Positions 4,260 to 50,095 of a stretch of 63,600 nt of DNA are shown here, in pieces. The position numbers were made by a program, and so were the translations under genes. Numbering within the stretch: position 1 is the stretch's first letter; each line of letters opens with the position of its first letter. The DNA lies in the NCBI GenBank assembly GCA_002497765.1, contig DAET01000045.1, positions 36,326-99,925 of the forward strand, written 5' to 3'. The DNA is from Euryarchaeota archaeon UBA486. Its GTDB lineage: Archaea; Thermoplasmatota; Poseidoniia; Poseidoniales; Poseidoniaceae. Below the pieces are notes generated by a model. That model ran no database searches, was not told where the DNA came from, and saw nothing but the letters and a program-made list of their open reading frames with translations.

Positions 4260-6995
4260 ATGCAACGTCTGCACTTCGCACTGGTCGGCATCGTCGTCCT
4301 CTCTTTGTGGGCGCCGTCTGGACTTGCCCTGCTCGAGGAGGAGACCTCCTTTGAGCCGTCGCATCAAGGGACTGATTTTCCCATCGGCTGGACTGAGTTT
4401 AATCTCGGTGGTCCATTTTCTCCTGAAGTTCGAATGGTCTATCCGGCCATGTTCGACGGCCAAGACAAGGAGATGGCGGGTAACGGGCCGTTCTCATGGC
4501 TCATTTTTGTCGGTGATTCCGGTGAAGCCCTCGACGGCTACGACTTGTGGACCGATGAACTGGTCAAGCGTGGCTTCATCGTGGTGATCACCCAAGCCTT
4601 CTCGGACGAAACCGATGTTGAGGCCACGCTGGAGCGCTTTGTCGACATTCAAGATGCGATGTTGCAGCAAAACCAATCCAACATCCATGTCTTGGGTTCG
4701 GTGGGGAACATCGACCTGGATCACTGGGCTGTTTCTGGTCACGGAAAAGGTGCAACAGCGGCTTATTTGGCGTTCCCGTTTTGGGACCAAACCCCCGTTG
4801 CCACCACCGTCCACCCGCCTCGGGCTGTGTTTGGGTTGGGCGTTGATTTTGAAGAGCTTGAACCCTCGTTCGAGTGGGACGATGTCGCCACGCCCTCCTT
4901 CCCGCAACCGAACACGGGGCTGTTCATCACGGGCACGGTGGATGAAGTTGCACCGTCTCAACAAGCCATGGAACGCGTCGAGGGACTCGGTGGTGTGGCT
5001 TGGCATTGGATTCACCTGCTTGGTGCAGACCATTATCAGTTCCAAGACACGCGGTCCATCTTCGAAAATGACGGTGATGCCACCATGAGTCAAACGGCCC
5101 AAATCGAACTTTCAGCAGAACACGTGGTGGCTTTCCTCGACACCGTTCTTCACGGCGACCACGCACGGTTCAGAGATGCGTTCAACCGTGGTGAGGGGGC
5201 GCAAATTGTCAGCGACCCGAATGCCTACGTGGACGAGAACCTCGAAGCGGCTTCGTTCCTTCGTTGGGTCTCAACATCAGCGAGCTACAACGCATCAACG
5301 CCATTGAATGGGACGCAGAATTTGACCCTCGCAGTGGAATGGACGCTACGAGACGGGACGTCCTTTGAGGACCTTCCCGCTGGGTGGGATGTGAACCTCA
5401 CATGTGGTTGGTCCAACGGTCCTTGGGAAGCCATAGGGACGCTGGCTCCCAACGGCACGGCCACCTGTGTCTACCCGATGGCGCCCGTTGCACCTGGACT
5501 TCAGAAAGCATGGCTTAAACTTCAGGTGGAAGGTGCTCCGGCGACCTTTGGTGCAGCCGTGTTCCGCGACAACACGCCAATCGTCCCCGTGTCTCCAAAA
5601 CCGGTGGTCTACGTTCCTCAACACAACACCCGAACGGTTGAGGCCCTCAGCATCGGTTCTGACCCCGACGGCCAGCTGGTTCGCATCGTGGATGCCACCT
5701 TGTCAGGTGACGACGCCTTCCATTTCCGAGTGGATGTTGCAGAACACGGGCTGAACATGTCCGTTAGTCACGCCTTGGATGAGGAATGGTTGGGTGAGTG
5801 TGTGCTTGATGTCACGCTCCGGAGTGACGGAGAGACGGTGGATGAATATTCAACGCAACTTCGCGTGGTGATGACGCCCGTGAACGACCCTCCTGTGAAG
5901 CAAGGAACGATTCCGATTCAAGAGATGAACGAGGATGGACCCAGCGTGGTCTACGACCTCGGTGATGTGGTTTCCGACCCGGAAGGGGAGCCACTTGAGG
6001 TGTTCATTTCAGGCCTGAAAAGTGGTGAACAAACGCCCGTTCACTTCAGCATTGAGGGTGAACGAATCACCTTAACACCGCTGCCGAACGCACACGGGGC
6101 AACGGTGCTCCAGATCCTGCTAAGCGATGGCGAGAACCCGTCGTTGATGGTTGAGGTGCCCGTCGTGGTCAATCCCGTGAACGACCCGGTCATTGTGAAC
6201 GCCTCGCAGTGGACCAACCTCTCGTTCGCTGAAGACACGACGTTCACCTTGGCGCTGGCTCCTTTGGCGTACGATGTTGACGGTGACGACTTGATGTGGA
6301 CGCTCGAAGGAAACCTCGATGCGTTCCAAGTCTCATTGACGAACGGCACCGTTGAGATGACACCGCAGCAAGATGTGTTCGGTGTCTTTGAGGGCGTTTG
6401 GTTGAACGTGTCCGATGGGACATCCACTCACGCACACAACATGACGGTCACCGTGGAACCGGTGGGCGACCTTCCCTTCGTCTCCATCGAATCTGTCCAA
6501 GGTCTGAGTGGCTCCACAGCGAACATGTACTGGTCGGTCGTCGACGTTGACGGCGAGGTCAACACCCAAGCGAACGTCTCGGTGGACGGAGTCATCGTGG
6601 AGGTGAACCACTCCTGTCTGAGTAGCGGAACGGGTGCCTATCAGTGCGTGACGCTCCTGCCCGTTCCGGCCGACACTTCCACCTCGCTCTATGTCGAACT
6701 CGAGATTTACGATGTGGAACTAGACCGCAGCGTCATTGCGAACAAGGTGGTTGACCTTTCCTCTGTCGGTGATGGCGGCAATGAAACGTCGGCTGGAGAG
6801 GACATCGGAGGCTCCGGTTCGATGGCGGTCGTCGCCGGAATTGGCATGTTACTCCTCCTCGTTGGGACCGGAGCGGTTTTGGTAAGCCGTTCGCGAAAGG
6901 CAGCGACTGAATCAAGCGCTCCCTCGGCGATATCGGATGAGCCTCCCGCCTCATCTGGGACGGGGTTGCTCGCTCGGGCAAAGCAGTTGAAGTGA
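4260..6995 (+). CDS. Type-I anchored surface protein A: signal peptide, alpha/beta-hydrolase-like head with substituted nucleophile, cadherin-like repeats, C-terminal TM
   Basis: 911 aa. Signal-like N-terminus (LHFALVGIVVLSLWAPSGLALL). Dienelactone-hydrolase/cutinase-like pattern (VYPAMF...PFSWLIFVGDSGE..DGYDLWTDELVKRGFIVVITQ...IDLDHWAVSGHGKGATAAYL). Repeats carry VNDPPV / VNPVNDPVIV / VEPVGDLPFV boundaries typical of cadherin-like domains. C-terminal TM (MAVVAGIGMLLLLVGTGAVLV) plus a short basic tail. Confidence 0.75.
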   Translation: MQRLHFALVGIVVLSLWAPSGLALLEEETSFEPSHQGTDFPIGWTEFNLGGPFSPEVRMVYPAMFDGQDKEMAGNGPFSWLIFVGDSGEALDGYDLWTDELVKRGFIVVITQAFSDETDVEATLERFVDIQDAMLQQNQSNIHVLGSVGNIDLDHWAVSGHGKGATAAYLAFPFWDQTPVATTVHPPRAVFGLGVDFEELEPSFEWDDVATPSFPQPNTGLFITGTVDEVAPSQQAMERVEGLGGVAWHWIHLLGADHYQFQDTRSIFENDGDATMSQTAQIELSAEHVVAFLDTVLHGDHARFRDAFNRGEGAQIVSDPNAYVDENLEAASFLRWVSTSASYNASTPLNGTQNLTLAVEWTLRDGTSFEDLPAGWDVNLTCGWSNGPWEAIGTLAPNGTATCVYPMAPVAPGLQKAWLKLQVEGAPATFGAAVFRDNTPIVPVSPKPVVYVPQHNTRTVEALSIGSDPDGQLVRIVDATLSGDDAFHFRVDVAEHGLNMSVSHALDEEWLGECVLDVTLRSDGETVDEYSTQLRVVMTPVNDPPVKQGTIPIQEMNEDGPSVVYDLGDVVSDPEGEPLEVFISGLKSGEQTPVHFSIEGERITLTPLPNAHGATVLQILLSDGENPSLMVEVPVVVNPVNDPVIVNASQWTNLSFAEDTTFTLALAPLAYDVDGDDLMWTLEGNLDAFQVSLTNGTVEMTPQQDVFGVFEGVWLNVSDGTSTHAHNMTVTVEPVGDLPFVSIESVQGLSGSTANMYWSVVDVDGEVNTQANVSVDGVIVEVNHSCLSSGTGAYQCVTLLPVPADTSTSLYVELEIYDVELDRSVIANKVVDLSSVGDGGNETSAGEDIGGSGSMAVVAGIGMLLLLVGTGAVLVSRSRKAATESSAPSAISDEPPASSGTGLLARAKQLK

Positions 6996-13201: not shown

Positions 13202-13332
13202 TGGTGCCGGGAGCGGGGCTCGAACCCGCGACCTTCGGATGTCTCAGACACCACAAGGGGCTTTGCACGTCATACGATCGCCTTGAAGGCTGCCCTATGA
13301 GTCCGACGCGCTACCAACTACGCCACCCCGGC
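13202..13332 (-). tRNA. tRNA with CAU anticodon (elongator Met, or Ile2 if C34 is modified), intron-containing, CCA genomically encoded
   Basis: Folded by hand from the reverse strand: acceptor GCCGGGG/TCCCGGC (G7-U66), D-arm GCGT-AGTTGGTA-GCGC, anticodon stem TCGGA/TCCGA, loop CT-CAT-A(intron)A, variable AGGTC, T-arm GCGGG-TTCGAGC-CCCGC, discriminator A, CCA. G1-C72 argues against an initiator. Confidence 0.85.
13241..13295 (-). other. 55-nt tRNA intron at the canonical 37/38 position with a bulge-helix-bulge splice motif
   Basis: Intron sequence, written as DNA: GGGCAGCCTTCAAGGCGATCGTATGACGTGCAAAGCCCCTTGTGGTGTCTGAGAC. The central 4-bp helix CTCA/TGAG is flanked by 3-nt bulges TA|G (5' site) and AC|A (3' site). 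The outer helices are the anticodon stem and GGCA/TGTC. Both cleavage sites fall after the second bulge nucleotide. Confidence 0.75.
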
Positions 13333-14363: not shown

Positions 14364-14597
14364 ATCAGCGTGCTGACGAACGATCTCGTTCAACACACGG
14401 TCGATTCGCTGTCGGTCGAACCACTCCTGGCTGATTCGTCGCTCCATTCGACGGCGCCGGGCGCGAACGAGCGGTGCGAGCACGGTCCAACACAAGGCCT
14501 CCTCAAGGCGGAGCATGATGGGGTTCATGGTCGGCCGTTGGAACCAACCTACTGCTTCCTTTCGGGGGCCCGTTCGTGAAAACTGAAAGTGAATCAA
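14352..14597 (-). CDS. Possible small basic protein translationally coupled to rfcS (hypothetical)
   Basis: 81-aa ORF whose ATG overlaps the rfcS stop as ATGA (14594-14597). It is Arg-rich (VRARRRRMERRISQEWFDRQRIDRVLNEIVRQ). No family recognised. Spurious ORFs are common in GC-rich DNA, hence the low confidence. Confidence 0.25.
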   Translation of the reverse strand: MIHFQFSRTGPRKEAVGWFQRPTMNPIMLRLEEALCWTVLAPLVRARRRRMERRISQEWFDRQRIDRVLNEIVRQHADLLG

Positions 14598-15550
14598 GCA
14601 CGCAAATGTTGGACGATTTGAGCGGTCAGCGCATCCAGTTGAATCTGTTCACCGCCGCCCTCGACCAAACGGTAGTCGATTTCAGCCATCCATTCCGTCA
14701 AGGCAAGTTTCGACCGTTCTTCGAGGAAATCAGCGCTGTAGAGCTCACGGTGAAGTTGATTCACAAAATCCGTACCGGCCAGCCCGAACTGGTCGAGCAG
14801 TTCACGCAACCTTCGGCGGGCGACGTGAAAGCCATCGTCTCGGCACGCCATCAAATACTGGTGGAGGGCTTCCGGGGGCGCTGTGGCTGAGGTTTCATAC
14901 ACCAGTTCTCGGCTCACGGTCGTGTTCAAGGCGGCAGCCACTTGGAGTGCCGTCAGCGCTTTGCGCAGGTCACCCTGGGAGATTCGAGTCAAGGCTTCAA
15001 CAGCTCCTTCGCCCAAGGTCAAGGCTTCAAGTTCGGCGACGTGGACAACTTGGGAGGCCACGTCGGCATCGGAGAGCGGTCTGAATCGGAAGACTGCGCA
15101 CCGGGATTGAATCGGTTCAATGATTTTGGAAGAGTAGTTGCAAGAGAGAATGAAGCGGCAGGTTTCCGCATACTGCTCCATGATTCGGCGGAGTGCACCT
15201 TGCGCATCGTTGGTCAGGGCGTCGGCCTCATCGAGGAAGATGATCTTGAAGGCTGCACCGCCGTAGGGCTGCGTTCGAGCAAATTGCTTCACCTTGGTTC
15301 GGATGCTCTCCAATTTACGCTCATCAGAGGCGTTCATCTCCAGCAGGTTCTGACGAAAATCTTGCCCAAAGATGTCCTTGGTCAGCGCCATGGCAGCCGT
15401 CGTTTTTCCAGTTCCCGGAGGTCCAGCGAAGAGCAAATGAGGGAAATTCTTGTTTCCAGCGTAGGTCCCTAGACGCTGCACAACAGCGGCTTGTCCTTTG
15501 ATTTGGGTCACCGATTGAGGGCGGTGTTTCTCGACCCAAAGTTCGCTCAT
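14594..15550 (-). CDS. rfcS: Replication factor C small subunit
   Basis: Track ORF 14594..15823 shortened to MSELWVEKHRPQSVTQIKGQ (the conserved RFC box II start). Walker A GPPGTGKTTAAMAL, Walker B IIFLDEADALT, SRC motif IQSRCAVFRF. The 91-codon N-terminal extension has no RFC similarity. Confidence 0.9.
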   Translation of the reverse strand: MSELWVEKHRPQSVTQIKGQAAVVQRLGTYAGNKNFPHLLFAGPPGTGKTTAAMALTKDIFGQDFRQNLLEMNASDERKLESIRTKVKQFARTQPYGGAAFKIIFLDEADALTNDAQGALRRIMEQYAETCRFILSCNYSSKIIEPIQSRCAVFRFRPLSDADVASQVVHVAELEALTLGEGAVEALTRISQGDLRKALTALQVAAALNTTVSRELVYETSATAPPEALHQYLMACRDDGFHVARRRLRELLDQFGLAGTDFVNQLHRELYSADFLEERSKLALTEWMAEIDYRLVEGGGEQIQLDALTAQIVQHLRA

Positions 15551-15665
15551 GCTCCCCGTTCTCGTTGACGAGCCTCCTTCAACATTCGCATCCACGGGGG
15601 AAGGAATTTGACGAGCAAAATTTTCGTGTCTTGAGGGGTGGTCATGCCATATAAGGGAAAAGTCC

Positions 15666-15673
15666 CTATAATG
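15666..15673 (+). promoter_or_regulatory. TATA-like box (CTATAATG) 26-33 nt upstream of the giant gene ATG (leaderless arrangement)
   Basis: Sequence ...gtccCTATAATGgggagtggtgtaagggttgagtcccATG. A second TATA-like element, CATATAAGG, lies ~15 nt further upstream in the divergent rfcS/giant-gene intergenic region. Confidence 0.35.
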
Positions 15674-15698
15674 GGGAGTGGTGTAAGGGTTGAGTCCC

Positions 15699-18600
15699 AT
15701 GCGTAGCGTACGAATTGTTTCTCCCCGGGCCACCGCGCTTTTGCTCGTGTTGATGTTTATTTTCGCCGACCTCTCGCTTCCGCAAACCATGGAAGGTTGG
15801 TCCGAACTTGAAGACGAACCCACGGTCCACCGCGCAGTTTCCTATCACGCCATTCACGCTGACACCTACATCACGGCTTCCGCCCCCACCAGCACGTACA
15901 ACACCTCAGCCACCGGGACACTGGCCGATGGACCCGCGCAGGAATCACGCTTGCTGTTGCGGTTCCCAATGAATTACACGGCAAGCGACACCATCCACGA
16001 GGCGAGCATCGATTTGGAGTGTACCACCGATGCCCTCGGCCCTACTGAATTGAAGGCCTACGTGGCTCACATGGACCGGTTTTGGAACGGTTCCTTTGCT
16101 TCTTGGGTGGCCTATGCCAGCAACCAACTCTGGTCCGAAGCCGGCGGTGAAGCTGGTGCTGACCGAGGTGACTGGGAACCTCCGGCCTTGCTTTCGGGCA
16201 ACGGGACTCTCACCCTCAACGTCACCTCCATTGCGCAACAAGCGGCTCGCTCCAATTCGGCCTACCTCTCTGTCATCGTCGCATCCTTCGGGGCCACCTA
16301 CGACTGTAGCATGTCTGAGGACACCGTGGCGGCGAACCGACCCGAGTTGACGTTGGATGTCAGTGCGGGTTCCGCAGCGACCAGCGGCGCAACGGTGTCG
16401 ACCGACCTTCCCGTGGACGAAGGCGCGCCGTGGATGGAATCTGACTTCCTGCTTCAACCCGTCACCACCCCTGCGTTGTCCTACGACATGAACAGCGGGA
16501 CGGACGTCGAGATTCAACTCAGCAACGCAGATGATTGGCGTTCTGCCACCGACGAGGCTTGGCATTTCTCCACGCTGTGGTCCACCTTCGCGTCCACCGG
16601 AACGTCCGGTGCCTACAACCTCCCATCCAACCTCGCACTGACCAACGGCACCGCCATGCACATGCGTGTACGAGCCGTGGACAGCAACGATCAGTGGGGC
16701 GCATGGGATTCAACCAGTTTCCTCTTGCCCAACCTGAACGTGGTCGATAACGGCGACGGCACGGCCACCATGACGCTCGGCCCCACCGACACTGGCCTGG
16801 AGCAGGATTTCCTGCAGGACACCTTCGTCAACGAAACCAGGAAGACCTACAATTATGGCGCTGATGCCTTGGTCGAATCCAGCATGACCTCCAGCAAGGA
16901 ACGTTTGATTCACTTCCGAACGTCACTCAACCAACTCGGCCTCCACGACAACCTCACCATCGTCAACGCTGAACTCAAACTCACCCGTTCCTCCTACAGC
17001 GGCGATCCGGTGGTTTCGGTCCACGGCATGGAAGAATCCGGTCTCTGGGCAGAGGAAGAAGTCACGTGGAACCAAATGTCAGCAGGTGGCGTACAGTGGT
17101 ACGACGGTGGCCGTTCAAACGGCACCGCTACCATGGCGTTGGCGGACGGCAACCAAACCAGCAACAGTTTCACGTTTGACCTTGACCACGCTGTTCAGAA
17201 CTACCTTGACGGTGGCGATGAAAACCCTCTCGATTTGATGGTCGCTGTGCGAGGTAAGTTCGAATCCTACACCAACAATGAAGGCATCTTTTTCCACTCG
17301 GCAGAAGCTGCCAATCCAAGCGATGCACCTTCGTTTTCCATTACGTACGAATGGGGCAGCGGGGCACCACCCGCCTCGGTGAACCTCACCGCACCTGCCG
17401 ATGGCCTCGCTGTGTGGAACAAAACCGGTGACAACCTCTCGGGCAACACCCAGCCCACGCTCAACTGGTCGCAACCCGCCACTGGCGATGACATCGTGTT
17501 CGAACTCGCCACGGACGAGGACTTCCGACTTCGACAGATGCGCGTTGACACCCGTGTTGACAACGACTTCAGCCCCACAGATGGCACGCTGGCCATGACC
17601 GGTTCCAAGACCCTTGAGGTGGGGAACATGTACTTCTGGCGCATGGCCACCGTCGACAGTGACAATCACTACGGTGAGTGGGTCAGTTCGAGTTTCCTCG
17701 TCTCCTCTCTGGAGAGCATCTGGCTGGGCGGCGACCGCTACGAATTCAACTTGAAGCACGGCAACGGCTCACAGGACAATCAATATCCCGAGTGCATGGA
17801 CACCTACATCGACAGCGCCGCACCCAACGATAATTACGACGGCGATTCGGAGATGACCATCGATTACAGCCCCTTCGGCGGTGAGATCACGGCCCTGTTG
17901 GGTTGCAACTTGGTGTCCAACCTCCTGCCCGACGGCTATGCGGTCGAGTCGGCTCACCTTCGCATGTCGTTGACTTCAACGACTTTTGGCACGCCGACCA
18001 TCGGTGTGTGGGAAAGCAATCAGAACGACTGGAACGCCGAGGACGCCACCTGGTCCAGCTACGATGGTTCTAACACGTGGGCCACGGCCGGCGCCAAGGG
18101 TGCAGAGCGCGGTTCGCTGCTCGACAGCGTTTCGGTTGGATCGTCGTTCTCCGAGGGCGATTCGGTCGAATGGAACGTCACCCTTGCGGTTCAGAACGCC
18201 ATGCGTGAAGACCGTCGAGTGGACTTCATCGCCGGCATGCTCGGCGCGGGGTCTGGCGGTGCACGAACAGCCTACTTCAGCACGGCCGAGGACTCGATGT
18301 CCAGCCGACCTGAACTCTCCTTTGTCTACGTCCCAGGCTCCGACGCTCTCCCGTCCAATCCTGCCCCGGCCCTGCCACTGAACGGCTCTTGGTCCATCGG
18401 TACAGGCGTTGATTTGACGCCCATCAGCCAGCCCGAACTGGATTGGAATTTCGGGGGGACCATGGCGCTCGCTGGCTACATCGTTCAACTGGACACACAA
18501 GCCGACTTTTCATCGGTGAACAGCCTCACCTACACGTCGTGGAACGATGCAGGATTTGACGTCACCAACACCTCTTTCACGCTCCAGTCCGACCTCGATG

Positions 18601-21600
18601 AAGGGAAGACGTGGTTCTGGCGTGTCCGCGCCGTTTCGGCCACCAACCAAATCGGCAACTGGTCCAACGTTTACCACTTCCAACTCCCCGACCTCAACAC
18701 CGTTGTCTACAACGCCACCAAGGCTTCGGTTGAACTCCGCCACCACGGCGCCCTGCCTCACCTCAGCACACCCCACTTGGTCGACACCTACGTCGTTGAG
18801 AACGGTTCAGGTTCCGATAACACCCAAGAGAATTCCACCACGCTGGTCGTGGGTGAAACCTCCACTGGCTACCAAGCGGCGGCGTTGATTCGTATTCCGC
18901 TCAGTGAAGTGCCCCAGCCGAGCGGTGCCCGTGTGACCGGTGCCGAGTTGAGCCTCTTTGCCGAATACGGGTCGGTTGAGGACGAACCCGTGGCCATCCG
19001 CCCCGTGCTGCAACCCTGGACCACCTCTGCCAACGCCACGACGTACGACGGCACCAATGCCTGGGCGCAGCGCGGTGGCCGTGCCATTGGGACGGACATC
19101 GGTGGCTACGTTGACCTCGTTGCCAGCGTCGAAGACGACTGGATGGACTTTGACGTGACGGAAGCCGTGCAGGCTGCGTTGGCCGCCGGACAGAACCACG
19201 TCTCGCTCATGGTTTACACCTCGAGCCAAACCACGGACGAAATCACGTTCACGTCGACCGAGGGAAGTGCCAGCGAACGACCGTATCTCACCTTGACCTG
19301 GGAAGACGGCACCGTGGCCACCCCGACCGTCAGTGGCGTAAACGCTGCGCCAACCAGCGGCTCCATCGTGTGGGACACCGCCTCCCACGCCCTTCAGGCG
19401 GACCGCTCGCCCACCTTCTCGTGGTCCTACAGCAGCTCGACTGCTGCCACAGGGTGGCGCGTGTTCATCCAGGCCGACGCCAGCAACGACATGGCCGGGC
19501 TCTACACCTACGACTCCCGAACCACGCCTGGCGCCTTTGACACCACCAACCTGACCTTCACACCCCCACAAGACCTGACCTTCGCTCAGGAAATTCGCTG
19601 GATGGTCCAACCGATGAACAACGGCATGCTGGGCCCACGAAGCACGTCGACCATCTTCTACCTCCCCAACGATGTCGGTGAGGAGATCAACAGCACGCAC
19701 GCTACGCTTTCCATCCAAGAGGGCTCCATCATCCCGTCCACCGCTTACCCAACGGTCACCTCCGACACCTACCTTGACACCGGCAACATCTACGCCAACC
19801 GTGGTTCCTCTTCCAGCCTCTTCGTTGGCCGAAGCCAAGTGTCCACAAACAACCCCAGCCTCCGTTCGATGTCACTGGTCAACATGGATTTCAGTTCGCT
19901 GCCCATGCCAGGAACCTACGAAGTGGTGAACGCCAGCCTTGAATTCACGGCCACCAACGTGTACCAGAATACCTTTGTCGCCGTCGGTGAGACCATCTCG
20001 GCGTGGACGGAATCCTCCGTGTACGCCTATCCAGCTGGAAACAATTCGACGTGGGCGTCCACGGGTGGGTACTCAGGGGATGATTTTGACATCCCATTCA
20101 ATCCAGCCCAGTGGGTCAACAGCACCGGAACTGCGGCCTTCAATGTCACGGCGCTTGTTCAGCACGCGCTGGCCAACAACATGGCTGAACTCAACGTTGT
20201 CCTCTTCCCTGTGGAGCGAGACAATGGCGTCAATGGACGTGTCCAGTTCGCTTCAAGTGAAGCCACCAACATTGACGTTCGTCCACGCCTCAACCTGACC
20301 TACCGGACCAGTGCCGCTTGGACGCCGTCGTCTCCAACCGGTCTCCTACCTGCGGATGGAAGCACCTTGTGGAACACTTCACAACCCCGTCCATCCGGTT
20401 TGAACGACAGCGATTTCTCGTGGACAACCTCGTACTCGAACGAAACTCAATTGGTCGCTTGTGCCAGCGATGATCCCCTCTTCCTGGATGAAGAGAAGAC
20501 AAACTGCTACAATTCAAACGATATTCTCGCAGGTCTTTACGACAACATAACGATCGACCTTGCCAACAATACGGTGAACAGTGCCGAATTGGGGAAGGGT
20601 GATTATTGGCAGTATTGGCGTATTCGTGCCGATCAGGGCGAACGAATCGGTGAATGGTCCTCGATCAACAAGTACCGCGTCCCCAACGACCAGGGCAGCG
20701 ACGACGGAAACGGGAATCACACCGTCAATTTGTCCCGAGGATCGATTTTCGAAACCACCGGCCTCTTGCCCATGGTTGAGGATGTTGAGATCGACTCCAA
20801 CGCTACGGTGAACCGTGGTTCCTCCAACACCATGGTGCTCGGCGTCAACAGTTTGGGCACAGGACAGAGCAGTATTTTGATGGAGTTTGACCTCAGTAAT
20901 ATCCCGTGGCCGTCCGCCATGACGCCAACGCAGATGATGCTCCGGATGTACCAGCCGGGCGTTTTGGGTACTTCGTCGACCACGATTGCGGCCTACCCGT
21001 GCAGCGGCTTCACGGAATCAAGCGTCGTCTGGGCTACGGCACCTACGTGCTCCACCAGTGAAATCACCCGATCGACCCTCACGTTGAACAACCCCTTCGG
21101 TTGGATGGAGTGGGATTTGACCAGCCTTGCGCAAGCCAACATTGCGAACGGTAACACCACGATGACGTTCAAGCTCGCCATGATTGGCAGCACCGGTTCG
21201 TCTCACAGCTTCTACTCCTCGGAATACTCCGACGCCACCTACCACCCGCATCTTGTCTTGGACTACGTGGACAACGTGAACGGCATCGTCCCACCTGCAC
21301 AACCCACCTTGACCTCCCCGGCTGACGGCCAGGTGCTCTACGCCGAGAACGACGGTTTGCTGACGCCATCGACCCAACCTGCTTTGACATGGACGCCCGT
21401 GAGCGGTGCGACGGGCTACATCGTCACCATCGCCAACGAGAGCGGTGTCTACAAGTTCCGCTCGTGGGAGGATTCAGAAATCACGAACACCACCTTCCGC
21501 TTCGAAGACAACCTCACCGAAGGTCAACTCTTCTCGTGGTGGGTGCAGGGCGTGAACCAGTCCATTCCAGGGCCCTCCTCTTCCCGCTGGAGCTTCGCCG

Positions 21601-24600
21601 TTGGTGCTCCCGACCACACTTACAACAACGACTACACCTACACTTACAGGTTCCAGACCGGCAGTGAAATCGCCGCCTTCGGTCACACCAACGTCCAGGA
21701 CACGGCCGTTTACAGCGAGTACGCCGACACCAATTTTGCCGGCGAATCGACCATCAGCGCGGGCAGCTACTGTGGAACACTTTGGGCCGACGAATGCCGA
21801 ATCAACATGGCGTTGAACGCCGCTCAGGTGCCGTTTGCTCAGTACCAACAGGTCCACTCGGCTTCGCTTGGGCTCTACGTCGAATCATGGACGTCCGTCC
21901 AGGGTGCGACGTCAGTCTCCTTCAACGTCCACCCCATCACCAACACGAACTGGGGTGCAGCCTCCGCCACCTGGAACGGTACCACCGCTGGTGGCACGTG
22001 GGGTGCACCCGGTATGCAAGCAGGTGTGGATTACGGCGATGCCGTGTCCACCACCGTCGTCAACGTTGACACCACGGGCTGGATTTGGTTTGATGTCAGT
22101 ACACCGGGCATGACCATCACCAGCGAACAAGCATGGGTGATCATTGCCACCCCGAACAACGGCTACGCCCACGCCTCGTTCTACTCCGGCTCCGCCACCA
22201 ACGTCAATTTCCGACCTCAAATGCAATTCAACACCACGAACATCACCAGCGTGGCCATCAGCCCGTCCGGTACGCCGACCACCGACGCAGACTCGGCGGT
22301 GAACTTCAATTCCGTGGCGTACGACCACCAAACCATGGTTCAGTCGCCGCCCATGACGTGGACGTCCTCCTCTGGCAGCATCGGCAGCAACGGATTGTTC
22401 ACGCCCAATACCGCTGGTGTAACGACCATCACGTCGTGCTTTGGCCTTGTGTGCGGTACTCAGAACATCACGGTCACGCCCGGCGCACCTGTTGACCTCA
22501 TCGTGACGCCGCTGACGGCGACCATCACGGCCGATGAAACGTTGACCATCAACGCTCAGATGGCTGACCAGCACGGCAATTTCCTCACGGGTGAAACGAT
22601 TGACATCACGCCGTCCAACGGGACCATGATGGGGACGACGTTCATGCCCTACACCGCTGGTTCGCACACCATCACGGTGTCTCACCCAGCCAGTGGTCAA
22701 CAGGTGTCTGTGGACGTGACCGTCCTTCCAGGTGCGCCATCCTCTCTCGTGATGAGCGGCTGTGGAGGCACCGTGCCTGCCGGTGTATGGTGCGACATTA
22801 CCCTTGAGCTGTACGACCAGTTCGGAAATGCACTCGCCCTCAGTGAAGCTGGCAACCTCACGTGGACCACCACCAACGGGAACTACTCGGAAATCAACGA
22901 TCAGTACTTCCCCGACCACGTTGGCGTTTGGACGTTGAGCGTGAGTTCGGTCTCCGGCGTAGCCGCTGAGATGAACATCACCGTCGGACATGGCGCCATT
23001 GACTTCCTCGAATTGAATGCTTCAGCGACCTCCATCACCGCCGACGACCGTGTCTACATCAACACCACTCGGGTTGACGTCCGAGGAAACCGATTGGCAG
23101 TGGTGCTCCCGGCGGACAACTGGACCAAGACCTCCGACGGGCAACTCACACCCGGTGCCCCAGCCATCTGGGACCCGGTGAAGACCGGTGCGAAGATCCT
23201 CGAGGCCCGGTACGAAACGACCCTGACGCAGATCACCATCGACGTGGCCAAGGGGAAGATTCAGACTCTGCGCATCGAAGTGGACGACGTCGACTCCACA
23301 TGGGCGCACTTCGATTTGACCGCCGATGACACGCTTGATGCCGATGTGTTTGCCATCGATGCCAAGGGCAACCAGTGGGCCATCGTCGTAAACTGGACCC
23401 TTGACCACCCAACGATGGGCGACTCCTCGAACTTCCTCGAGGTGCTCACGGGCGACACGACCACGTTCACGCCGTACTTCGCCAGCGAAGACCCCTACAC
23501 CATGACGGCCACCTACGACGACGGCACCACCGTTCATGCCGTGAGCATCAACATGACCGTTGACCACGGGTTCTTGCACACGGTGAGCATTGAAGGCACG
23601 GCCAACGACCCCGACCGAAGCACCGGTGCGGTGTTTGAACTGACCTCGGACTACGCCGTTGATTTCCTATCGGACCTCTACGACGCTGACAACAACCGCA
23701 TCACGTCCGACGGATTGACTTGGGTTGAGGTCAACGTTGCTACTGGCGATACCGAGGACATCACGACCCAACTGTTGCTGGACGGCATGCGATGGGAAGC
23801 CACCATGGTCGGCGAATGGCGTATTGAGGCCTACCAGGTCAGCGGTACTGGCTTCAACGTTAGCGACAGCATCACCATCACGGTGGTTCATGGCGAAGCC
23901 GTCACCGTTAGCGCCGACGTGTCTTTGAGCACGCCGACGGCCGGTGATCGTGTCGACATACAAGTGACCGGAACCGACGCGGATGGCAATCAGTTCCCAC
24001 AGAACGTTGAGTGGACCGAGAACGGTGAATCCGTCCCGACCCTGAGCGTCATCACGACCTCCGAGGGCACCTACACCTACGATGCGGAAGTCGCCGGCGT
24101 TCACACCCTGCAGTACGCTGTCGGTGGAGCGGTCTCCACGACCGAAATCACGGTCTCAGCTCAAAGCATCGTTGCACGACTTGAGGTGAACCTCTCTGCC
24201 GATACCGTCGAGCAGCTGGAGAGTTTGGACGTTAGCATCCGAGCCTTCGACGCCTTTGACAACGAAATCGACGTGCCCGGTAGTATTCAGGTTGAATCCA
24301 CGGGCCGGGGAACCGCCATGATGACCTCCTCCGACTTCTGGACCATCACGACCCTCGATGATGGCCCACAAACCATCACGGTGAGCGTTGGTGCGGTTCG
24401 TGTCAACGCGGAAATCAACGTCGAAGGCAACCTTGCCGGCTTCTTTGAGGCTGGCGGAACCCTCTACTACGTTGGTGCAGGTCTGCTTGCCATTGTTGCC
24501 GTGGTTCTCCTCGGCCTTCTCGTGATGTTCATGCGTGGTGGAAGCACCGATGATTGGGATGACGAGGATGAAGACGACGATGATGATGACGACGCTCCCT

Positions 24601-24854
24601 CCGGCCCGACGGGTCGTGCTCCCGGTCCGAGTGGTCCTGCGCCTGGTCCAAGCGGTCCTGCGCCTGGTCCAAGCGGTCCTGCGCCCGGCCCCACCGGTCC
24701 ACCTGCTGAAGAAGCCCCCGTTGAGGAGGCCGAAGAAGAAGCTGAGATCGAGACGAGTGTTGACGAAGACGGCACAGAATGGTGGGAAGACGAAGACGGT
24801 ACCTGGTGGTACCGCCTAGCCGGCGAGGAAGAGTGGCAAGAGTACAACGAATGA
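15699..24854 (+). CDS. Giant (3,051 aa from first ATG) type-I anchored surface protein B: 7 x [CBM-like beta-sandwich + FN3-like] super-repeats, Ig-like array, TM, acidic/Pro-rich/Trp-rich tail
   Basis: Track ORF 15690..24854 starts at TTG. The first ATG (15699) gives MRSVRIVSPRATALLLVLMFIFADLSLPQ, a signal peptide. It is one uninterrupted 9.1-kb frame rich in N-x-S/T sequons. TM GLLAIVAVVLLGLLVMFM lies at aa ~2923-2948 of the track ORF. The tail is DDWDDEDEDDDDDDD...(APGPSGP)n...DGTEWWEDEDGTWWYRLAGEEEWQEYNE. Confidence 0.85.
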   Translation: MRSVRIVSPRATALLLVLMFIFADLSLPQTMEGWSELEDEPTVHRAVSYHAIHADTYITASAPTSTYNTSATGTLADGPAQESRLLLRFPMNYTASDTIHEASIDLECTTDALGPTELKAYVAHMDRFWNGSFASWVAYASNQLWSEAGGEAGADRGDWEPPALLSGNGTLTLNVTSIAQQAARSNSAYLSVIVASFGATYDCSMSEDTVAANRPELTLDVSAGSAATSGATVSTDLPVDEGAPWMESDFLLQPVTTPALSYDMNSGTDVEIQLSNADDWRSATDEAWHFSTLWSTFASTGTSGAYNLPSNLALTNGTAMHMRVRAVDSNDQWGAWDSTSFLLPNLNVVDNGDGTATMTLGPTDTGLEQDFLQDTFVNETRKTYNYGADALVESSMTSSKERLIHFRTSLNQLGLHDNLTIVNAELKLTRSSYSGDPVVSVHGMEESGLWAEEEVTWNQMSAGGVQWYDGGRSNGTATMALADGNQTSNSFTFDLDHAVQNYLDGGDENPLDLMVAVRGKFESYTNNEGIFFHSAEAANPSDAPSFSITYEWGSGAPPASVNLTAPADGLAVWNKTGDNLSGNTQPTLNWSQPATGDDIVFELATDEDFRLRQMRVDTRVDNDFSPTDGTLAMTGSKTLEVGNMYFWRMATVDSDNHYGEWVSSSFLVSSLESIWLGGDRYEFNLKHGNGSQDNQYPECMDTYIDSAAPNDNYDGDSEMTIDYSPFGGEITALLGCNLVSNLLPDGYAVESAHLRMSLTSTTFGTPTIGVWESNQNDWNAEDATWSSYDGSNTWATAGAKGAERGSLLDSVSVGSSFSEGDSVEWNVTLAVQNAMREDRRVDFIAGMLGAGSGGARTAYFSTAEDSMSSRPELSFVYVPGSDALPSNPAPALPLNGSWSIGTGVDLTPISQPELDWNFGGTMALAGYIVQLDTQADFSSVNSLTYTSWNDAGFDVTNTSFTLQSDLDEGKTWFWRVRAVSATNQIGNWSNVYHFQLPDLNTVVYNATKASVELRHHGALPHLSTPHLVDTYVVENGSGSDNTQENSTTLVVGETSTGYQAAALIRIPLSEVPQPSGARVTGAELSLFAEYGSVEDEPVAIRPVLQPWTTSANATTYDGTNAWAQRGGRAIGTDIGGYVDLVASVEDDWMDFDVTEAVQAALAAGQNHVSLMVYTSSQTTDEITFTSTEGSASERPYLTLTWEDGTVATPTVSGVNAAPTSGSIVWDTASHALQADRSPTFSWSYSSSTAATGWRVFIQADASNDMAGLYTYDSRTTPGAFDTTNLTFTPPQDLTFAQEIRWMVQPMNNGMLGPRSTSTIFYLPNDVGEEINSTHATLSIQEGSIIPSTAYPTVTSDTYLDTGNIYANRGSSSSLFVGRSQVSTNNPSLRSMSLVNMDFSSLPMPGTYEVVNASLEFTATNVYQNTFVAVGETISAWTESSVYAYPAGNNSTWASTGGYSGDDFDIPFNPAQWVNSTGTAAFNVTALVQHALANNMAELNVVLFPVERDNGVNGRVQFASSEATNIDVRPRLNLTYRTSAAWTPSSPTGLLPADGSTLWNTSQPRPSGLNDSDFSWTTSYSNETQLVACASDDPLFLDEEKTNCYNSNDILAGLYDNITIDLANNTVNSAELGKGDYWQYWRIRADQGERIGEWSSINKYRVPNDQGSDDGNGNHTVNLSRGSIFETTGLLPMVEDVEIDSNATVNRGSSNTMVLGVNSLGTGQSSILMEFDLSNIPWPSAMTPTQMMLRMYQPGVLGTSSTTIAAYPCSGFTESSVVWATAPTCSTSEITRSTLTLNNPFGWMEWDLTSLAQANIANGNTTMTFKLAMIGSTGSSHSFYSSEYSDATYHPHLVLDYVDNVNGIVPPAQPTLTSPADGQVLYAENDGLLTPSTQPALTWTPVSGATGYIVTIANESGVYKFRSWEDSEITNTTFRFEDNLTEGQLFSWWVQGVNQSIPGPSSSRWSFAVGAPDHTYNNDYTYTYRFQTGSEIAAFGHTNVQDTAVYSEYADTNFAGESTISAGSYCGTLWADECRINMALNAAQVPFAQYQQVHSASLGLYVESWTSVQGATSVSFNVHPITNTNWGAASATWNGTTAGGTWGAPGMQAGVDYGDAVSTTVVNVDTTGWIWFDVSTPGMTITSEQAWVIIATPNNGYAHASFYSGSATNVNFRPQMQFNTTNITSVAISPSGTPTTDADSAVNFNSVAYDHQTMVQSPPMTWTSSSGSIGSNGLFTPNTAGVTTITSCFGLVCGTQNITVTPGAPVDLIVTPLTATITADETLTINAQMADQHGNFLTGETIDITPSNGTMMGTTFMPYTAGSHTITVSHPASGQQVSVDVTVLPGAPSSLVMSGCGGTVPAGVWCDITLELYDQFGNALALSEAGNLTWTTTNGNYSEINDQYFPDHVGVWTLSVSSVSGVAAEMNITVGHGAIDFLELNASATSITADDRVYINTTRVDVRGNRLAVVLPADNWTKTSDGQLTPGAPAIWDPVKTGAKILEARYETTLTQITIDVAKGKIQTLRIEVDDVDSTWAHFDLTADDTLDADVFAIDAKGNQWAIVVNWTLDHPTMGDSSNFLEVLTGDTTTFTPYFASEDPYTMTATYDDGTTVHAVSINMTVDHGFLHTVSIEGTANDPDRSTGAVFELTSDYAVDFLSDLYDADNNRITSDGLTWVEVNVATGDTEDITTQLLLDGMRWEATMVGEWRIEAYQVSGTGFNVSDSITITVVHGEAVTVSADVSLSTPTAGDRVDIQVTGTDADGNQFPQNVEWTENGESVPTLSVITTSEGTYTYDAEVAGVHTLQYAVGGAVSTTEITVSAQSIVARLEVNLSADTVEQLESLDVSIRAFDAFDNEIDVPGSIQVESTGRGTAMMTSSDFWTITTLDDGPQTITVSVGAVRVNAEINVEGNLAGFFEAGGTLYYVGAGLLAIVAVVLLGLLVMFMRGGSTDDWDDEDEDDDDDDDAPSGPTGRAPGPSGPAPGPSGPAPGPSGPAPGPTGPPAEEAPVEEAEEEAEIETSVDEDGTEWWEDEDGTWWYRLAGEEEWQEYNE
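15858..22235 (+). repeat. Seven diverged ~325-aa (~980-bp) protein super-repeats inside the giant gene
   Basis: Recurring DTY-type openings are at track-ORF aa 57 (ADTYITAS), 377 (DTFVNE), 704 (DTYIDS), 1032 (DTYVVE), 1359 (DTYLDT), ~1698 (DVEIDS) and 2004 (DTAVYS). Each is followed by N-x-G...L-x-VG...[LI]-x-x-FDLS/IPLS...A-x-L-x-L and closes with (R)P-x-L-x-[LF]-x-Y (RPELTLDV, RPELSFVY, RPYLTLTW, RPRLNLTY, HPHLVLDY, RPQMQFN). FN3-like modules lie between them and end MHMRVRAV..WGAW, YFWRMATV..YGEW, WFWRVRAV..IGNW, IRWMVQPM, YWRIRADQ..IGEW, FSWWVQGV. Confidence 0.7.
22245..24425 (+). repeat. Array of roughly eight Ig-like (bacterial Big-type) domains in the giant protein
   Basis: ~85-95-aa units recur with the pattern ITVTPGAPVDLIVTP..ATITADETLTINAQMADQHGN.L, VTVLPGAPSSLVMSG, ITVGHGAIDFLELNA..TSITADDRVYINTTRVDVRGN, TVVHGEAVTVSADVSL..AGDRVDIQVTGTDADGN, TVSAQSIVARLEVNLSADTVEQLESLDVSIRAFDAFDN. 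Confidence 0.6.
24618..24701 (+). repeat. Four in-frame 21-bp tandem repeats encoding (APGPSGP)n in the cytoplasmic tail of the giant protein
   Basis: gctcccggtccgagtggtcct / gcgcctggtccaagcggtcct / gcgcctggtccaagcggtcct / gcgcccggccccaccggtcca. The two central units are identical. Confidence 0.85.
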
Positions 24855-24866
24855 GGAGGCTTTGAG

Positions 24867-27461
24867 GTGACCTTTCCAAGGGCTTGCGTTGCGTTGGTTG
24901 CGCTGGTCCTGTTGGGAACCCTGTCAGTTCATGCACCGGAGATGCTCGAAGAAGCCCCGCCTGCGATGCGCTCGGGAACGCCCGACCGTGTGATCATCGA
25001 TTCACCACCGACTTCGGTTTCAGCCGACGAGGTGGTCGTGTTTGAAGCCATCATCTACGACCCTGTCAACAATGTCTTGGCGGGCGACATTCACTGGTCA
25101 GCGAGCAACGGCAGCATTTCCGATGACGGGTTGTTTTACCCGTGGTCGGCCGGTTTGGTGGAAATCACCGCCGAACACAACGGGCTCGTAGCCCGCCACA
25201 ACATCAGTGTCGAAGCCGGTGTTCCCACCTCCATTGAAATTACTCGGTTGAGCCTGGGGGTGCTCGAGCCCACGACCCTCACAGCGGATGTACTGGACGG
25301 TCGTGGCAATCGGATGCCCGGTCCAGCCACCATGGTTTGGGACATTGATGGTGTCTATGCAGGGCTCGGCGAGCCCACGTGGACGGCAGAAGAACTCGGC
25401 GATGTCTCTGCACGCGTACGATTCAATCAACTGGAGGCACGAGCCACCATCACCGTAACGGCAGGTGCGCCGTACGCCTTTGTGTTCGAACAACCGCTGA
25501 TGGTTCGTGCTGGCACTCTTCAGAGCATCACGCCCAGTTTGGTTGACATCAACGGCTATGAAATGCCCCTTTCGGCGGTTGGGCCTTTGGCGTGGTTTGC
25601 CGAGAACGGTTCGTTCAACGCCCAGGGAGAATACCTGGCAACCAACACTGGGAAATGGCTGATCACCGTTTCCTCAGGCAACATCACGGGCAGCGGTACG
25701 CTGCAGGTGATTCCCGGTGATGCCGTAGCGTCCACGCTCAAGGTGGCGAATGAACCCGAGACCTACATGGCGGGCGAGTCGTATGAATTGGTCTTTGAAC
25801 GCCGAGATGTGAACGGCTACATCGGATTTGTTTCCCCTTCCATTCACGCGCTTTCGGCTTCATCGGGCGGGCTTTCCGTTGATGACGAAGGACGGGTGTT
25901 TTGGAACCCATCCGGCATTGGTCAAGCCACCATCACGGGTATGGACGGGACGGTTTTAGCCATGCTCGAGCTTGATGTCATGCATGGTCGGGCGATCGAC
26001 CTTGCCTTCCAGCTTGAACCACGGCAACCCTCTGCCGGAGAGCAGGTTGTTTTGCAGCTGGTCGCTGAGGATGTCAAGGGCAACCGATGGGTGGTGGACG
26101 GGAACATCACCATGGGCACGGGTGCCGCCGATGAACTCACGGACGATCTGACATATTCGCTTATTCAGGCTCAGTCCGCCCGCTCGTGGAAGTTTGACGG
26201 GAGCTGGTTTGACAACACCACGGGCGCCATGTTCACGGCCGACGTGTCGTTTGATGTTCAACCCGGTCGATTGGCCTTTATCGAACTCGAGGGGGAAGGA
26301 AGCCGCGTGCCTGCAGACGGTTCGCTGGACCTTAACCCGATGTTCTTCGATGCATACGGCAACGAACTCGAACCCATTGCCCTGAATTGGAGTTTGAACG
26401 GCAACGATATCACGCTCGAGATGCTGCTGAACGACGGCCGATGGACCGCAACCAGCGTTGGCGGGCATGAACTCCGTGTCAACGCTGATGGTGTCTTCGC
26501 TACCGTAAGGTTGACCGTTGTGGCCGGCAACGCCCACGGCCTCATCACCGATGCCGATGAAGGCCTTGTGGTGAATGCTGGACTACCCCACGACCTGTTC
26601 ATTCAGGTGGTTGATGTCCACGGCAACATTGCGGAATCGACCTCAGTCACGTCCTCACTCAACACATCGCTGGGTGAGCTTGAGGCCTCACCAACCGGTC
26701 TTGGCTACTGGCAGTTCACTGGAAAGCAGGTCGGCACCTACGAACTCGTGCTGGAGGACGAGGGAGCAGTCCACACCATCCCGTTGACCATCGAAGCCGG
26801 CTCGCCCGTTCGGATTCAGGCGACCATGAGTCGAGATGGCATTGCTGAAGGCGACGTGGTGTTGCTCAATGCGTTTGCCACCGACGTCTACGGCAACACG
26901 CTGAGCATTCCAAAGGCGAACACCAGCGTTTCCTGTACTGCAGGCCCGGCCTCGTTTGTCACCAACGGAACATGGGAAGTCGACGTGGAAAACGGCGGTA
27001 CTGACCGCTCGTGCACGGTGCGTTGGAGCGGTTTGCTTGCTCAAACGTTCTACGATGTCGATGAAGTCTTGTTGGGGGGCGCTGTTGGGTCAACGAATAC
27101 GGCCATGACCATGGCAGCGGTGCTTCTCTTCCTGTTGCTTGCCGTCCTGGTCACCCTGACCCGAAAGGCTGCAGAGGTTTCGAAAGAAGGCTGGGTGGAA
27201 GACGCCTTTGATGATGAGGACGACGACGATGAGGAGGATGAGATGCTTGGTAGTGCCGTTCAAGACGACACGCCGCTCCACGAGCGGCATGGGCTGACAC
27301 TGGAATCCATGAAAGCTCTGGCGGAAGAGGCCGGTAAGGTGGGGGTCATGCAGGCCACACCGTCCACCACGCAAGGACAAACCGGCTGGTATGTTGATGT
27401 CTCCGAGGAATTGCAATACTGGGAAGTCACGCCTGACGGCGAGTGGATACGGCATGAATGA
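24867..27461 (+). CDS. Type-I anchored surface protein C: signal peptide, Ig-like domain array, TM, acidic tail with Trp/Tyr-rich C-terminus
   Basis: 864 aa. GTG start 12 nt after the giant gene stop, preceded by GAGGAGG (24854-24860). Signal ACVALVALVLLGTLSVHA. Repeated Ig-like units (ISVEAGVPTSIEITR, ITVTAGAPYAFVFEQ, LQVIPGDAVASTLKV, LDVMHGRAIDLAFQL, VRLTVVAGNAHGLI, LTIEAGSPVRIQATM). TM AAVLLFLLLAVLVTL. Tail DDEDDDDEEDE...TGWYVDVSEELQYWEVTPDGEWIRHE. Confidence 0.8.
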   Translation: MTFPRACVALVALVLLGTLSVHAPEMLEEAPPAMRSGTPDRVIIDSPPTSVSADEVVVFEAIIYDPVNNVLAGDIHWSASNGSISDDGLFYPWSAGLVEITAEHNGLVARHNISVEAGVPTSIEITRLSLGVLEPTTLTADVLDGRGNRMPGPATMVWDIDGVYAGLGEPTWTAEELGDVSARVRFNQLEARATITVTAGAPYAFVFEQPLMVRAGTLQSITPSLVDINGYEMPLSAVGPLAWFAENGSFNAQGEYLATNTGKWLITVSSGNITGSGTLQVIPGDAVASTLKVANEPETYMAGESYELVFERRDVNGYIGFVSPSIHALSASSGGLSVDDEGRVFWNPSGIGQATITGMDGTVLAMLELDVMHGRAIDLAFQLEPRQPSAGEQVVLQLVAEDVKGNRWVVDGNITMGTGAADELTDDLTYSLIQAQSARSWKFDGSWFDNTTGAMFTADVSFDVQPGRLAFIELEGEGSRVPADGSLDLNPMFFDAYGNELEPIALNWSLNGNDITLEMLLNDGRWTATSVGGHELRVNADGVFATVRLTVVAGNAHGLITDADEGLVVNAGLPHDLFIQVVDVHGNIAESTSVTSSLNTSLGELEASPTGLGYWQFTGKQVGTYELVLEDEGAVHTIPLTIEAGSPVRIQATMSRDGIAEGDVVLLNAFATDVYGNTLSIPKANTSVSCTAGPASFVTNGTWEVDVENGGTDRSCTVRWSGLLAQTFYDVDEVLLGGAVGSTNTAMTMAAVLLFLLLAVLVTLTRKAAEVSKEGWVEDAFDDEDDDDEEDEMLGSAVQDDTPLHERHGLTLESMKALAEEAGKVGVMQATPSTTQGQTGWYVDVSEELQYWEVTPDGEWIRHE

Positions 27462-40438: not shown

Positions 40439-40523
40439 GTCATCGTCTCAAGTCGTTGGGCTATCATGCTTGTGTCCCTCCTTGAGGGGAAAGGGCTTTC
40501 ATACGCCCAACCATACACAAACC

Positions 40524-50025: not shown

Positions 50026-50064
50026 GGACTTCGCAAGATGGTGGTTTAGACATCAGTCCGTTTG

Positions 50065-50074
50065 TTTCATATAC
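50065..50074 (+). promoter_or_regulatory. TATA-like box (TTTCATATAC) 22-31 nt upstream of the surface protein F ATG (leaderless arrangement)
   Basis: tttgTTTCATATACtctctgtttcgtgctattaacATG, in the 70-nt divergent trmI / protein F intergenic region, one of the few AT-rich patches in the window. Confidence 0.35.
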
Positions 50075-50095
50075 TCTCTGTTTCGTGCTATTAAC

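Follow-up and report, generated by a model that had tools for sequence, protein, structure and literature searches.

A giant membrane-anchored protein of Marine Group II archaea carries seven CBM96-type modules alternating with FN3-like modules

What does a marine archaeon do with one polypeptide of 3,051 amino acids (aa) that consists almost entirely of beta-sandwich domains? The question is raised by a gene in a 63,600-nucleotide (nt) stretch of DNA, here called the window, from Euryarchaeota archaeon UBA486 (contig DAET01000045.1, positions 36,326 to 99,925), which belongs to the Poseidoniales (Marine Group II). An earlier note, made from the letters of the window, had described in this gene seven super-repeats of about 325 aa, each pairing a beta-sandwich like that of a carbohydrate-binding module (CBM) with an FN3-like one, and had taken the former to be putative glycan-binding modules. 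We found the repeats, the domain types and the great age of the array to be real, and discovered in addition a stalk of immunoglobulin (Ig)-like domains, a membrane anchor and a cytoplasmic tail. In our reading, to which we assign a probability of about one half, the giant protein is a non-enzymatic, glycosylated type-I surface fibre, the distal CBM96 array of which would bind external polymers multivalently.

The giant protein has a type-I anchor and comprises seven CBM96, six FN3-like and eight Ig-like domains, giving 21 beta-sandwich domains. Its features were assigned with hidden Markov models (HMMs), alignments, motifs, hydropathy and AlphaFold2 (AF2) models, and are located as follows.

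15699..24854 (+): giant gene, 3,051 codons from ATG, then stop
15699..15785 (+): signal peptide with a basic n-region, the hydrophobic stretch ATALLLVLMFIFA and a conserved FADLxLPQ; from hydropathy and orthologue conservation
15849..16367 (+): CBM96/DNRLRE module 1, aa 54-226; Pfam/NCBIfam HMMs, alignment, motifs
16383..16730 (+): FN3-like module 1, aa 232-347; alignment, motifs, the fold being assigned via alignment to unit 3
16809..17354 (+): CBM96/DNRLRE module 2, aa 374-555; HMMs, alignment, motifs; best Disaggr_repeat match
17370..17705 (+): FN3-like module 2, aa 561-672; alignment, motifs
17787..18335 (+): CBM96/DNRLRE module 3, aa 700-882; AF2 model, Foldseek, profile match to 7VBO
18351..18689 (+): FN3-like module 3, aa 888-1000; AF2 model, Foldseek, profile search
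18771..19307 (+): CBM96/DNRLRE module 4, aa 1028-1206; best DNRLRE_dom stretch, with a TGFb_propeptide-like hit
19323..19667 (+): FN3-like module 4, aa 1212-1326; alignment, motifs
19752..20309 (+): CBM96/DNRLRE module 5, aa 1355-1540; HMMs, alignment, motifs
20325..20684 (+): FN3-like module 5, aa 1546-1665; alignment, motifs
20769..21272 (+): CBM96/DNRLRE module 6, aa 1694-1861; best Pfam CBM96 stretch, alignment, motifs
21291..21605 (+): FN3-like module 6, aa 1868-1972; alignment, motifs
21687..22241 (+): CBM96/DNRLRE module 7, aa 2000-2184; HMMs, alignment, motifs; no FN3 after it
22257..24434 (+): stalk of eight Ig-like beta-sandwich domains, aa 2190-2915; all-beta AF2 model with a predicted local distance difference test (pLDDT) score of 88
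24468..24536 (+): single C-terminal transmembrane helix, aa ~2927-2949; hydropathy, kept in orthologues
24537..24851 (+): cytoplasmic tail of 105 aa with an Asp/Glu run, (PGPSGPA)n and a Trp-rich end DGTEWWEDEDGTWWYR...EEWQEY
24612..24700 (+): DNA tandem repeat, a 21-nt unit x 4.2 that encodes PGPSGPA; the gene's only tandem repeat

The repeat region described earlier (15858-22235) corresponds to aa 57-2182 of the open reading frame (ORF), and the seven-fold repeat was confirmed by HMM searches, phmmer and motif searches. Both Pfam CBM96 (PF24517; E = 4.7e-50, 170.1 bits against a cutoff of 26) and NCBIfam DNRLRE_dom (NF033679; E = 1.7e-96, 320.9 bits against a cutoff of 34) matched in seven stretches. 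When one 325-aa unit was compared with the giant protein by phmmer, the other units aligned near full length at E = 1e-8 to 1e-17, an internal repeat signal far above chance. BLASTP of the whole protein against itself returned the identity match only, the ~325-aa units shared 17-25% pairwise protein identity (alignment A1), and no DNA-level repeats were detectable among the seven units, in line with the earlier description of the DNA copies as highly diverged. Module openings were found at aa 58, 377, 704, 1032, 1359 and 2004, with DVE at ~1698, and wherever the pattern search matched, the motifs lay within about 3 aa of the positions given before. The closing RPxLxLxY-type motif, ascribed to every module, was matched in six units (aa 218, 547, 874, 1532, 1853, 2176) and not in the one remaining. 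Similarly, five of the six FN3-like modules matched PxLxW (aa 261, 589, 915, 1241, 1897) and five matched FWRVxA...GxWS (aa 649, 976, 1303, 1642, 1949), one module being left unmatched in each case. The six FN3-like modules do sit between the seven CBM96 modules, and unit 7 is a CBM96 module alone, without FN3.

Unit 3 (aa 700-1027) was the sole CBM96-FN3 unit modelled, with AF2, from alignment A2 (20 orthologous segments and five other CBM96-FN3 units), and the other six modules were assigned by alignment. The model had a mean pLDDT of 91 and a predicted template modelling (pTM) score of 0.84. In a Foldseek search its best match was 7VBO, the founding structure of CBM96 (E = 2.9e-8, target template modelling (TM) score 0.73), followed by 8WAB (E = 3.7e-8, TM score 0.72-0.76, 16% identity) and then by a long run of FN3-containing receptors, many of them with tandem FN3 domains. 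Model residues ~189-300 aligned to FN3 domains, for example 2dn7 (target TM score 0.65, 19% identity). Searched against the sequences of the Protein Data Bank (PDB), the A2 profile matched almost the entire domain of 7VBO (E = 1.8e-7) and also titin FN3 (E = 0.0044); unit 3 alone, searched by phmmer against the PDB, gave nothing meaningful, just SepF at E ~0.8. Pfam fn3 (PF00041) gave no hit in the giant protein at E <= 1, and the orthologue P0047 has a precomputed PF00041 hit. A Disaggr_repeat hit was weak (36.8 bits, with the cutoff at 33.9) and, because it overlaps CBM96 module 2, reflects the kinship of the two families. The curated HMMs, the profile match to 7VBO and the predicted fold of unit 3 agree, and the fold and CBM96/DNRLRE family membership of the modules are secure; the spacers are FN3-like by fold and by profile match, as had been proposed.

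The earlier account covered two-thirds of the protein and missed the Ig-like stalk, the transmembrane anchor, the tail and a paralogous neighbouring gene. The signal peptide is predicted to be cleaved. Foldseek matched the stalk to generic multi-Ig arrays (nucleoporin gp210, GhpA, titin, DSCAM and bacterial S-layer proteins, among them Sap, EA1, SbsB and SbsC), and weak Filamin and Big_1 hits were also found in it; with matches so generic, the modelled stalk would suit an adhesin and an S-layer protein alike. In the tail, the copy number and even the presence of PGPSGPA varies among orthologues: it is absent in P0044, and P0045-P0047 have other Pro-rich sequence. The Trp-rich end, by comparison, is kept (last ~31 codons, 24759-24851; DGTEWW.....G.WWYR.....EW.EW) even where the orthologue is just 34% identical, and might represent a small docking domain, so far uncharacterised, on the intracellular side. 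No Pfam family matched the cytoplasmic tails of the giant and its neighbour, and the NCBIfam scan returned DNRLRE_dom alone, with no PGF-CTERM or other sorting signal. The ectodomain is acidic (isoelectric point (pI) ~4.05, 0.8% Lys), rich in Thr and Ser, and contains 59 N-x-S/T sequons, compared to 37 +/- 5 expected from its composition. No catalytic domain was found in the Pfam and NCBIfam scans of the 3,054-aa translation and of the stalk, and nearly the whole chain is accounted for by beta-sandwich modules, signal peptide, short linkers, transmembrane helix and tail.

A homologue search returned 48 proteins with identities from 99% down to 33%; 46 of them have 3,030-3,086 aa, two are partial, and the full-length homologues align collinearly. 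The close relatives come from metagenome-assembled genomes (MAGs) named Poseidonia, Candidatus Poseidoniaceae or Poseidoniales, in agreement with the archaeal host assumed earlier. The giant family was found in 43 species representatives, always at ~3,050 aa and in the same neighbourhood; since the scan of the genome collection with a single-sequence query reaches relatives of at least ~64% identity, the phyletic range recorded within the Poseidoniales is a minimum. In a profile search, the ~3,000-aa seven-stretch family accounted for about 15 clusters at 50% identity. One giant homologue lies on a 1.5-Mb contig, the gene itself takes up ~9 kb, and the host genome is probably small; the gene appears to be a core one in this lineage. 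Two loci in this collection need a separate remark. One MAG contained two loci matching unit 3, L047 (JAYQOB010000006.1) and L007 (JAYQOB010000002.1), at 98% and 64% identity, so that either a second paralogue truly exists or the bin is mixed. The giant gene also occurs, in a copy 85% identical (L021, NZEQ01000063.1), in a MAG filed as Verrucomicrobiales bacterium, where a binning error is the most likely cause.

To date the array, every module from the window protein was compared with those of six divergent orthologues (49-34% identity). The best match of a module in another genome was always the module at the same position, in 294 of 294 comparisons for CBM96 and 252 of 252 for FN3 (546/546). 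The seven-fold array therefore predates the divergence of the family and has been kept without homogenisation. Pairwise ratios of nonsynonymous to synonymous substitution rates (dN/dS, omega) against species-level relatives were 0.05-0.09, and similar in the CBM96, FN3, stalk and tail parts (tail 0.03-0.15); the cleanest comparison, with the relative at locus L008, gave an omega of 0.06 at a dS of 0.8. The array is thus old and under purifying selection, as the earlier note had judged by eye. Recent duplication or concerted evolution is ruled out by the lack of DNA repeats together with the perfect positional orthology.

The second gene that bears on function lies 13 nt downstream of the giant gene and is co-directional with it.

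24867..27461 (+): 864-aa gene

Its product also has a signal peptide, an Ig-like array, a transmembrane helix and an acidic tail, the end of which is Trp-rich and conserved (GWYVDVS.E.QYW.V..DG.W). The whole ectodomain is collinear with the stalk of the giant (25% identity over 704 aa, E = 3e-36 in BLASTP), and from these likenesses the neighbour is a probable partner or paralogue of the giant. The neighbours of different genomes share 43-50% identity with each other and 21-25% with any stalk; being closer to one another than to the stalks, they point to an ancient duplication. The giant can be read as a neighbour-type stalk protein to which 13 distal domains were added. The pair of giant and neighbour is syntenic across the family, and the wider gene order was kept where the giant is 49% or 37% identical: upstream a divergently transcribed RFC small subunit gene, then the giant, a ~865-aa protein and an amino-acid permease.

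Put together, these parts suggest how the fibre might work. The protein would be exported by the Sec pathway, glycosylated and held in the membrane by its C-terminal helix. The eight Ig-like domains would serve as a stalk from which the distal two-thirds, with seven CBM96 and six FN3 domains, projects outward; if extended, the 21 beta-sandwich domains would span many tens of nanometres. The most likely job of the distal array would be lectin-like, multivalent binding of polysaccharides or glycoconjugates from algae or particles. Each module has retained its own identity from a time before the diversification of the family, and the seven would therefore be non-equivalent as binding sites. Because the giant has a tail with a conserved Trp-rich end and a paralogous, stalk-only neighbour, we suggest that the two proteins act together at the envelope.

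Binding is the part of this reading that meets the strongest objections. In 7VBO, alginate is bound by a basic groove formed by K10, K22, K25, K27, K31, R36 and Y159, as identified by mutagenesis (PMC9971899), and both characterised relatives, 7VBO and 8WAB, bind polyanionic uronic-acid polymers (PMC9971899; PMC12611786). The seven modules of each of seven genomes were aligned with 7VBO; at ~16% identity the individual residue equivalences are approximate. Several observations from this comparison weigh against the binding function that we propose. The groove residues are kept in none of the seven modules, except that module 2 has an Arg where 7VBO has R36, and the equivalent positions are otherwise occupied by A, S, T, D, E, G or hydrophobic residues. 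All seven modules are acidic (pI 4.0-4.4) and poor in Lys (0.8%). Among 47 orthologues, the groove-equivalent columns have an entropy above the mean of each module, and the columns equivalent to the hydrophobic core of 7VBO are conserved. A further objection concerns the gene as a whole: its conservation is strict, its length constant and its neighbourhood a housekeeping one, which is unusual in adhesins because these typically vary, and such features would fit a structural envelope role equally well. Judged from the alignment, the known binding mechanism of the founding member is absent from the giant's modules, and the term glycan-binding in the earlier note was assumed from the family name. 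The modules also do not adjoin a catalytic module, as a CBM in the CAZy sense would, no catalytic family being found in the Pfam and NCBIfam scans. We nevertheless infer glycan binding, with recognition that would not use the lysine-rich groove and may instead involve an alternative site or cation-bridged contacts.

These same objections lend weight to the main alternative, in which the giant and the 864-aa paralogue would both belong to the core glycoproteins of the envelope and have a structural role, as an S-layer-like structure or a surface canopy; we consider this possible, though on the doubtful side. Here the membrane-anchored Ig-like arrays would form or insert into a surface layer, and the CBM96/FN3 array would be an outer coat that contacts proteins or the cell's own glycans and not external substrates. 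This would account for an apparent core gene of fixed length that is syntenic beside housekeeping genes (RFC small subunit, GatD-type asparaginase) and under strong, uniform purifying selection (dN/dS 0.05-0.09), and for a putative ligand groove that is not conserved. The acidic, Thr/Ser-rich and sequon-enriched giant resembles archaeal surface glycoproteins, and an Ig-like array followed by a C-terminal transmembrane helix is the build of Haloferax volcanii csg and Nitrosopumilus maritimus SLP. The bacterial S-layer proteins among the fold matches of the stalk also agree with it, and DNRLRE domains were first noted in archaeal cell-surface, S-layer-type proteins (PMC2447325; PMC9971899). However, 3,051 aa far exceeds typical S-layer subunits, the fold matches of the stalk are generic Ig arrays, among which no archaeal S-layer protein ranks near the top, and the protein ends in a 105-aa cytoplasmic tail instead of PGF-CTERM or another sorting signal known to NCBIfam.

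The two ideas can also be combined. The giant and its paralogue might build the Marine Group II envelope together, with co-assembled Ig stalks, held by the Trp-rich ends, under an outer canopy of seven distinct acidic CBM96 modules that captures algal polysaccharides or glycoproteins by non-groove binding, for example cation-bridged or on an aromatic platform; we consider this scheme as a whole unlikely. Still less probable in our view is a receptor, the ectodomain of which senses contact with particles, cells or viruses while the Trp-rich tail relays the signal, or anchors the protein, to a partner inside the cell, for example the cytoskeleton or a signalling protein. Arguments for such a function are the last ~30 residues (DGTEWW..DGTWWYR...EW.EW), which are kept down to an overall identity of 34%, the related Trp-rich end of the neighbour's tail and the purifying selection on the tail (dN/dS 0.03-0.15), but the tail matches no known Pfam domain, and a receptor is compatible with the fibre and envelope readings rather than exclusive of them. 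Finally, a carbohydrate-active enzyme, a lyase or hydrolase carrying CBM96 like Dp0100, the PL8 lyases or Methanosarcina disaggregatase, would agree with CBM96/DNRLRE domains being typically appendages of polysaccharide lyases and disaggregatase (PMC9971899, PMC13260240) and with the weak Disaggr_repeat hit, but that hit overlaps a CBM96 module, the chain is filled by its seven CBM96, six FN3 and eight Ig-like domains, linkers, helix and tail, and the absence of a catalytic domain from the Pfam and NCBIfam scans of the whole protein effectively excludes an enzymatic role.

Marine Group II are the most abundant planktonic archaea of surface oceans and are uncultured, and their particle attachment and their uptake of organic matter with a high molecular weight have been inferred from genomes alone (PMC6461757, PMC6336850). 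The giant is a concrete candidate for their main surface-interaction or envelope protein, because a core-like gene of ~9 kb is found in 43 species representatives with constant length and neighbourhood and is under strong purifying selection. Additionally, its seven long-separated modules are a natural panel for finding the ligands of acidic CBM96/DNRLRE domains.

Regarding the gene itself, the mechanical call opens at a TTG (ORF 15690..24854, +; 3,054-aa translation). The probable start codon is the ATG at 15699, because the 99%-identical homologue P0001 (3,051 aa) begins there, with MRSVRIV; this gives the length of 3,051 aa stated earlier. The start region contains two further features.

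15667..15672 (+): TATAAT, candidate archaeal TATA box, from sequence reading and a consensus scan
14594-15823 (-): RFC small subunit, mechanical ORF of 409 aa with a GTG start, overlapping the start of the giant gene

The TATAAT lies ~27-30 nt 5' of ATG 15699 and, if used, would imply a leaderless or near-leaderless mRNA. The RFC small subunit is called at 317-318 aa in orthologous loci, and its true start is probably near 15550, which would leave a ~150-nt intergenic promoter region common to the two divergent genes.

The window has markers of archaeal type, namely the RFC small subunit, the GatD-type asparaginase and an intron-containing tRNA. The tRNA (13205-13332, -) was found by Rfam (56 bits) and presumably bears the intron because the match spans 128 nt; ARAGORN, unlike Rfam, reported no tRNA in the window. 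The window is also unusually rich in large predicted surface proteins. Besides the giant and its neighbour there are four, all on the forward strand and all with a signal-like N-terminus, a C-terminal transmembrane helix and a cytoplasmic tail.

4260-6995 (+): cadherin/Big_9 protein, 911 aa, predicted surface protein
40437-43436 (+): GDSL lipase with TSP3 repeat, 999 aa, predicted surface protein
45082-49101 (+): Ig-like/DUF4886 protein, 1,339 aa, with a tail ending in a zinc ribbon, predicted surface protein
49934-53590 (+): 1,218-aa protein with no Pfam match, predicted surface protein

How does the giant compare with known systems? Its modules belong to the same Pfam/NCBIfam family as TM6-N4 of the alginate lyase Dp0100 from Defluviitalea phaphyphila (7VBO; PMC9971899). 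Unit 3 and 7VBO have the same two-sheet beta-sandwich with one short helix, and the modules have the hydrophobic-core positions and a W-x-E-x-x-x-T-W motif in common with it. However, TM6-N4 occurs singly, as an accessory to a bacterial enzyme, and binds alginate through its basic groove, whereas the giant has seven modules, acidic and without the groove, and no enzyme domain. The second-best structural match to unit 3, 8WAB, is the chondroitin-sulfate-binding CBM of a chondroitinase; it is classified as DNRLRE by UniProt (PMC12611786) and, unlike the modules of the giant, is attached to a bacterial lyase, its ligand being a polyanionic glycosaminoglycan.

Archaeal examples are proteins of Methanosarcina. 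Disaggregatase, an enzyme, has three copies of DNRLRE at its C-terminus. The giant, by contrast, has seven copies that alternate with FN3, a transmembrane-anchored Ig stalk and no catalytic part; the marginal Disaggr_repeat hit was all that the Pfam scan returned in this direction, with no catalytic region of the Methanosarcina type. Common to the giant, the disaggregatase of Methanosarcina mazei and the Methanosarcina DNRLRE surface proteins (PMC2447325) are an archaeal host, an extracellular location and repeated DNRLRE domains, and these domains were described in 2004 in archaeal cell-surface or S-layer-type proteins (PMC2447325; PMC9971899).

The novelty implied by the earlier note was overstated. 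The profile search, which covered 1.84 billion representatives, returned 18,489 proteins at E <= 1e-3 and 5,277 at E <= 1e-10, including many unrelated large proteins with 3-8 CBM96-type stretches, and partial homologues of the giant already carry the NCBI label "DNRLRE domain-containing protein". Examples of the large proteins with several stretches are P0076 (2,839 aa, seven Disaggr/DNRLRE stretches) and P0075 (3,615 aa, PKD x12 and CBM96), which like the giant are very large and presumably extracellular; such proteins have other partner domains (PKD, phosphodiesterase) and are not collinear with the giant family. The combination of a CBM96-FN3 super-repeat with an eight-Ig stalk, a transmembrane helix and a Trp-rich tail was seen solely in the ~3,000-aa Poseidoniales family, and a search of the Marine Group II literature (DNRLRE, CBM, S-layer, adhesion) found no paper describing the protein. 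Of the earlier interpretation, the domain identity, the spacers and the antiquity stand, and the glycan-binding function and the implied novelty are not yet supported.

Archaeal S-layer glycoproteins such as csg of H. volcanii and SLP of N. maritimus consist of an Ig-like array with a C-terminal membrane anchor. The giant has the build of this group, being acidic and rich in N-glycosylation sequons, with an Ig-like array and a C-terminal anchor, and the 864-aa neighbour is also of about their size. It differs from them in having no sequence or specific fold match to them, no PGF-CTERM, a cytoplasmic tail and 13 extra distal domains. The giant protein is lineage-specific, built from a domain vocabulary and a beta-sandwich-repeat surface design that were already known.

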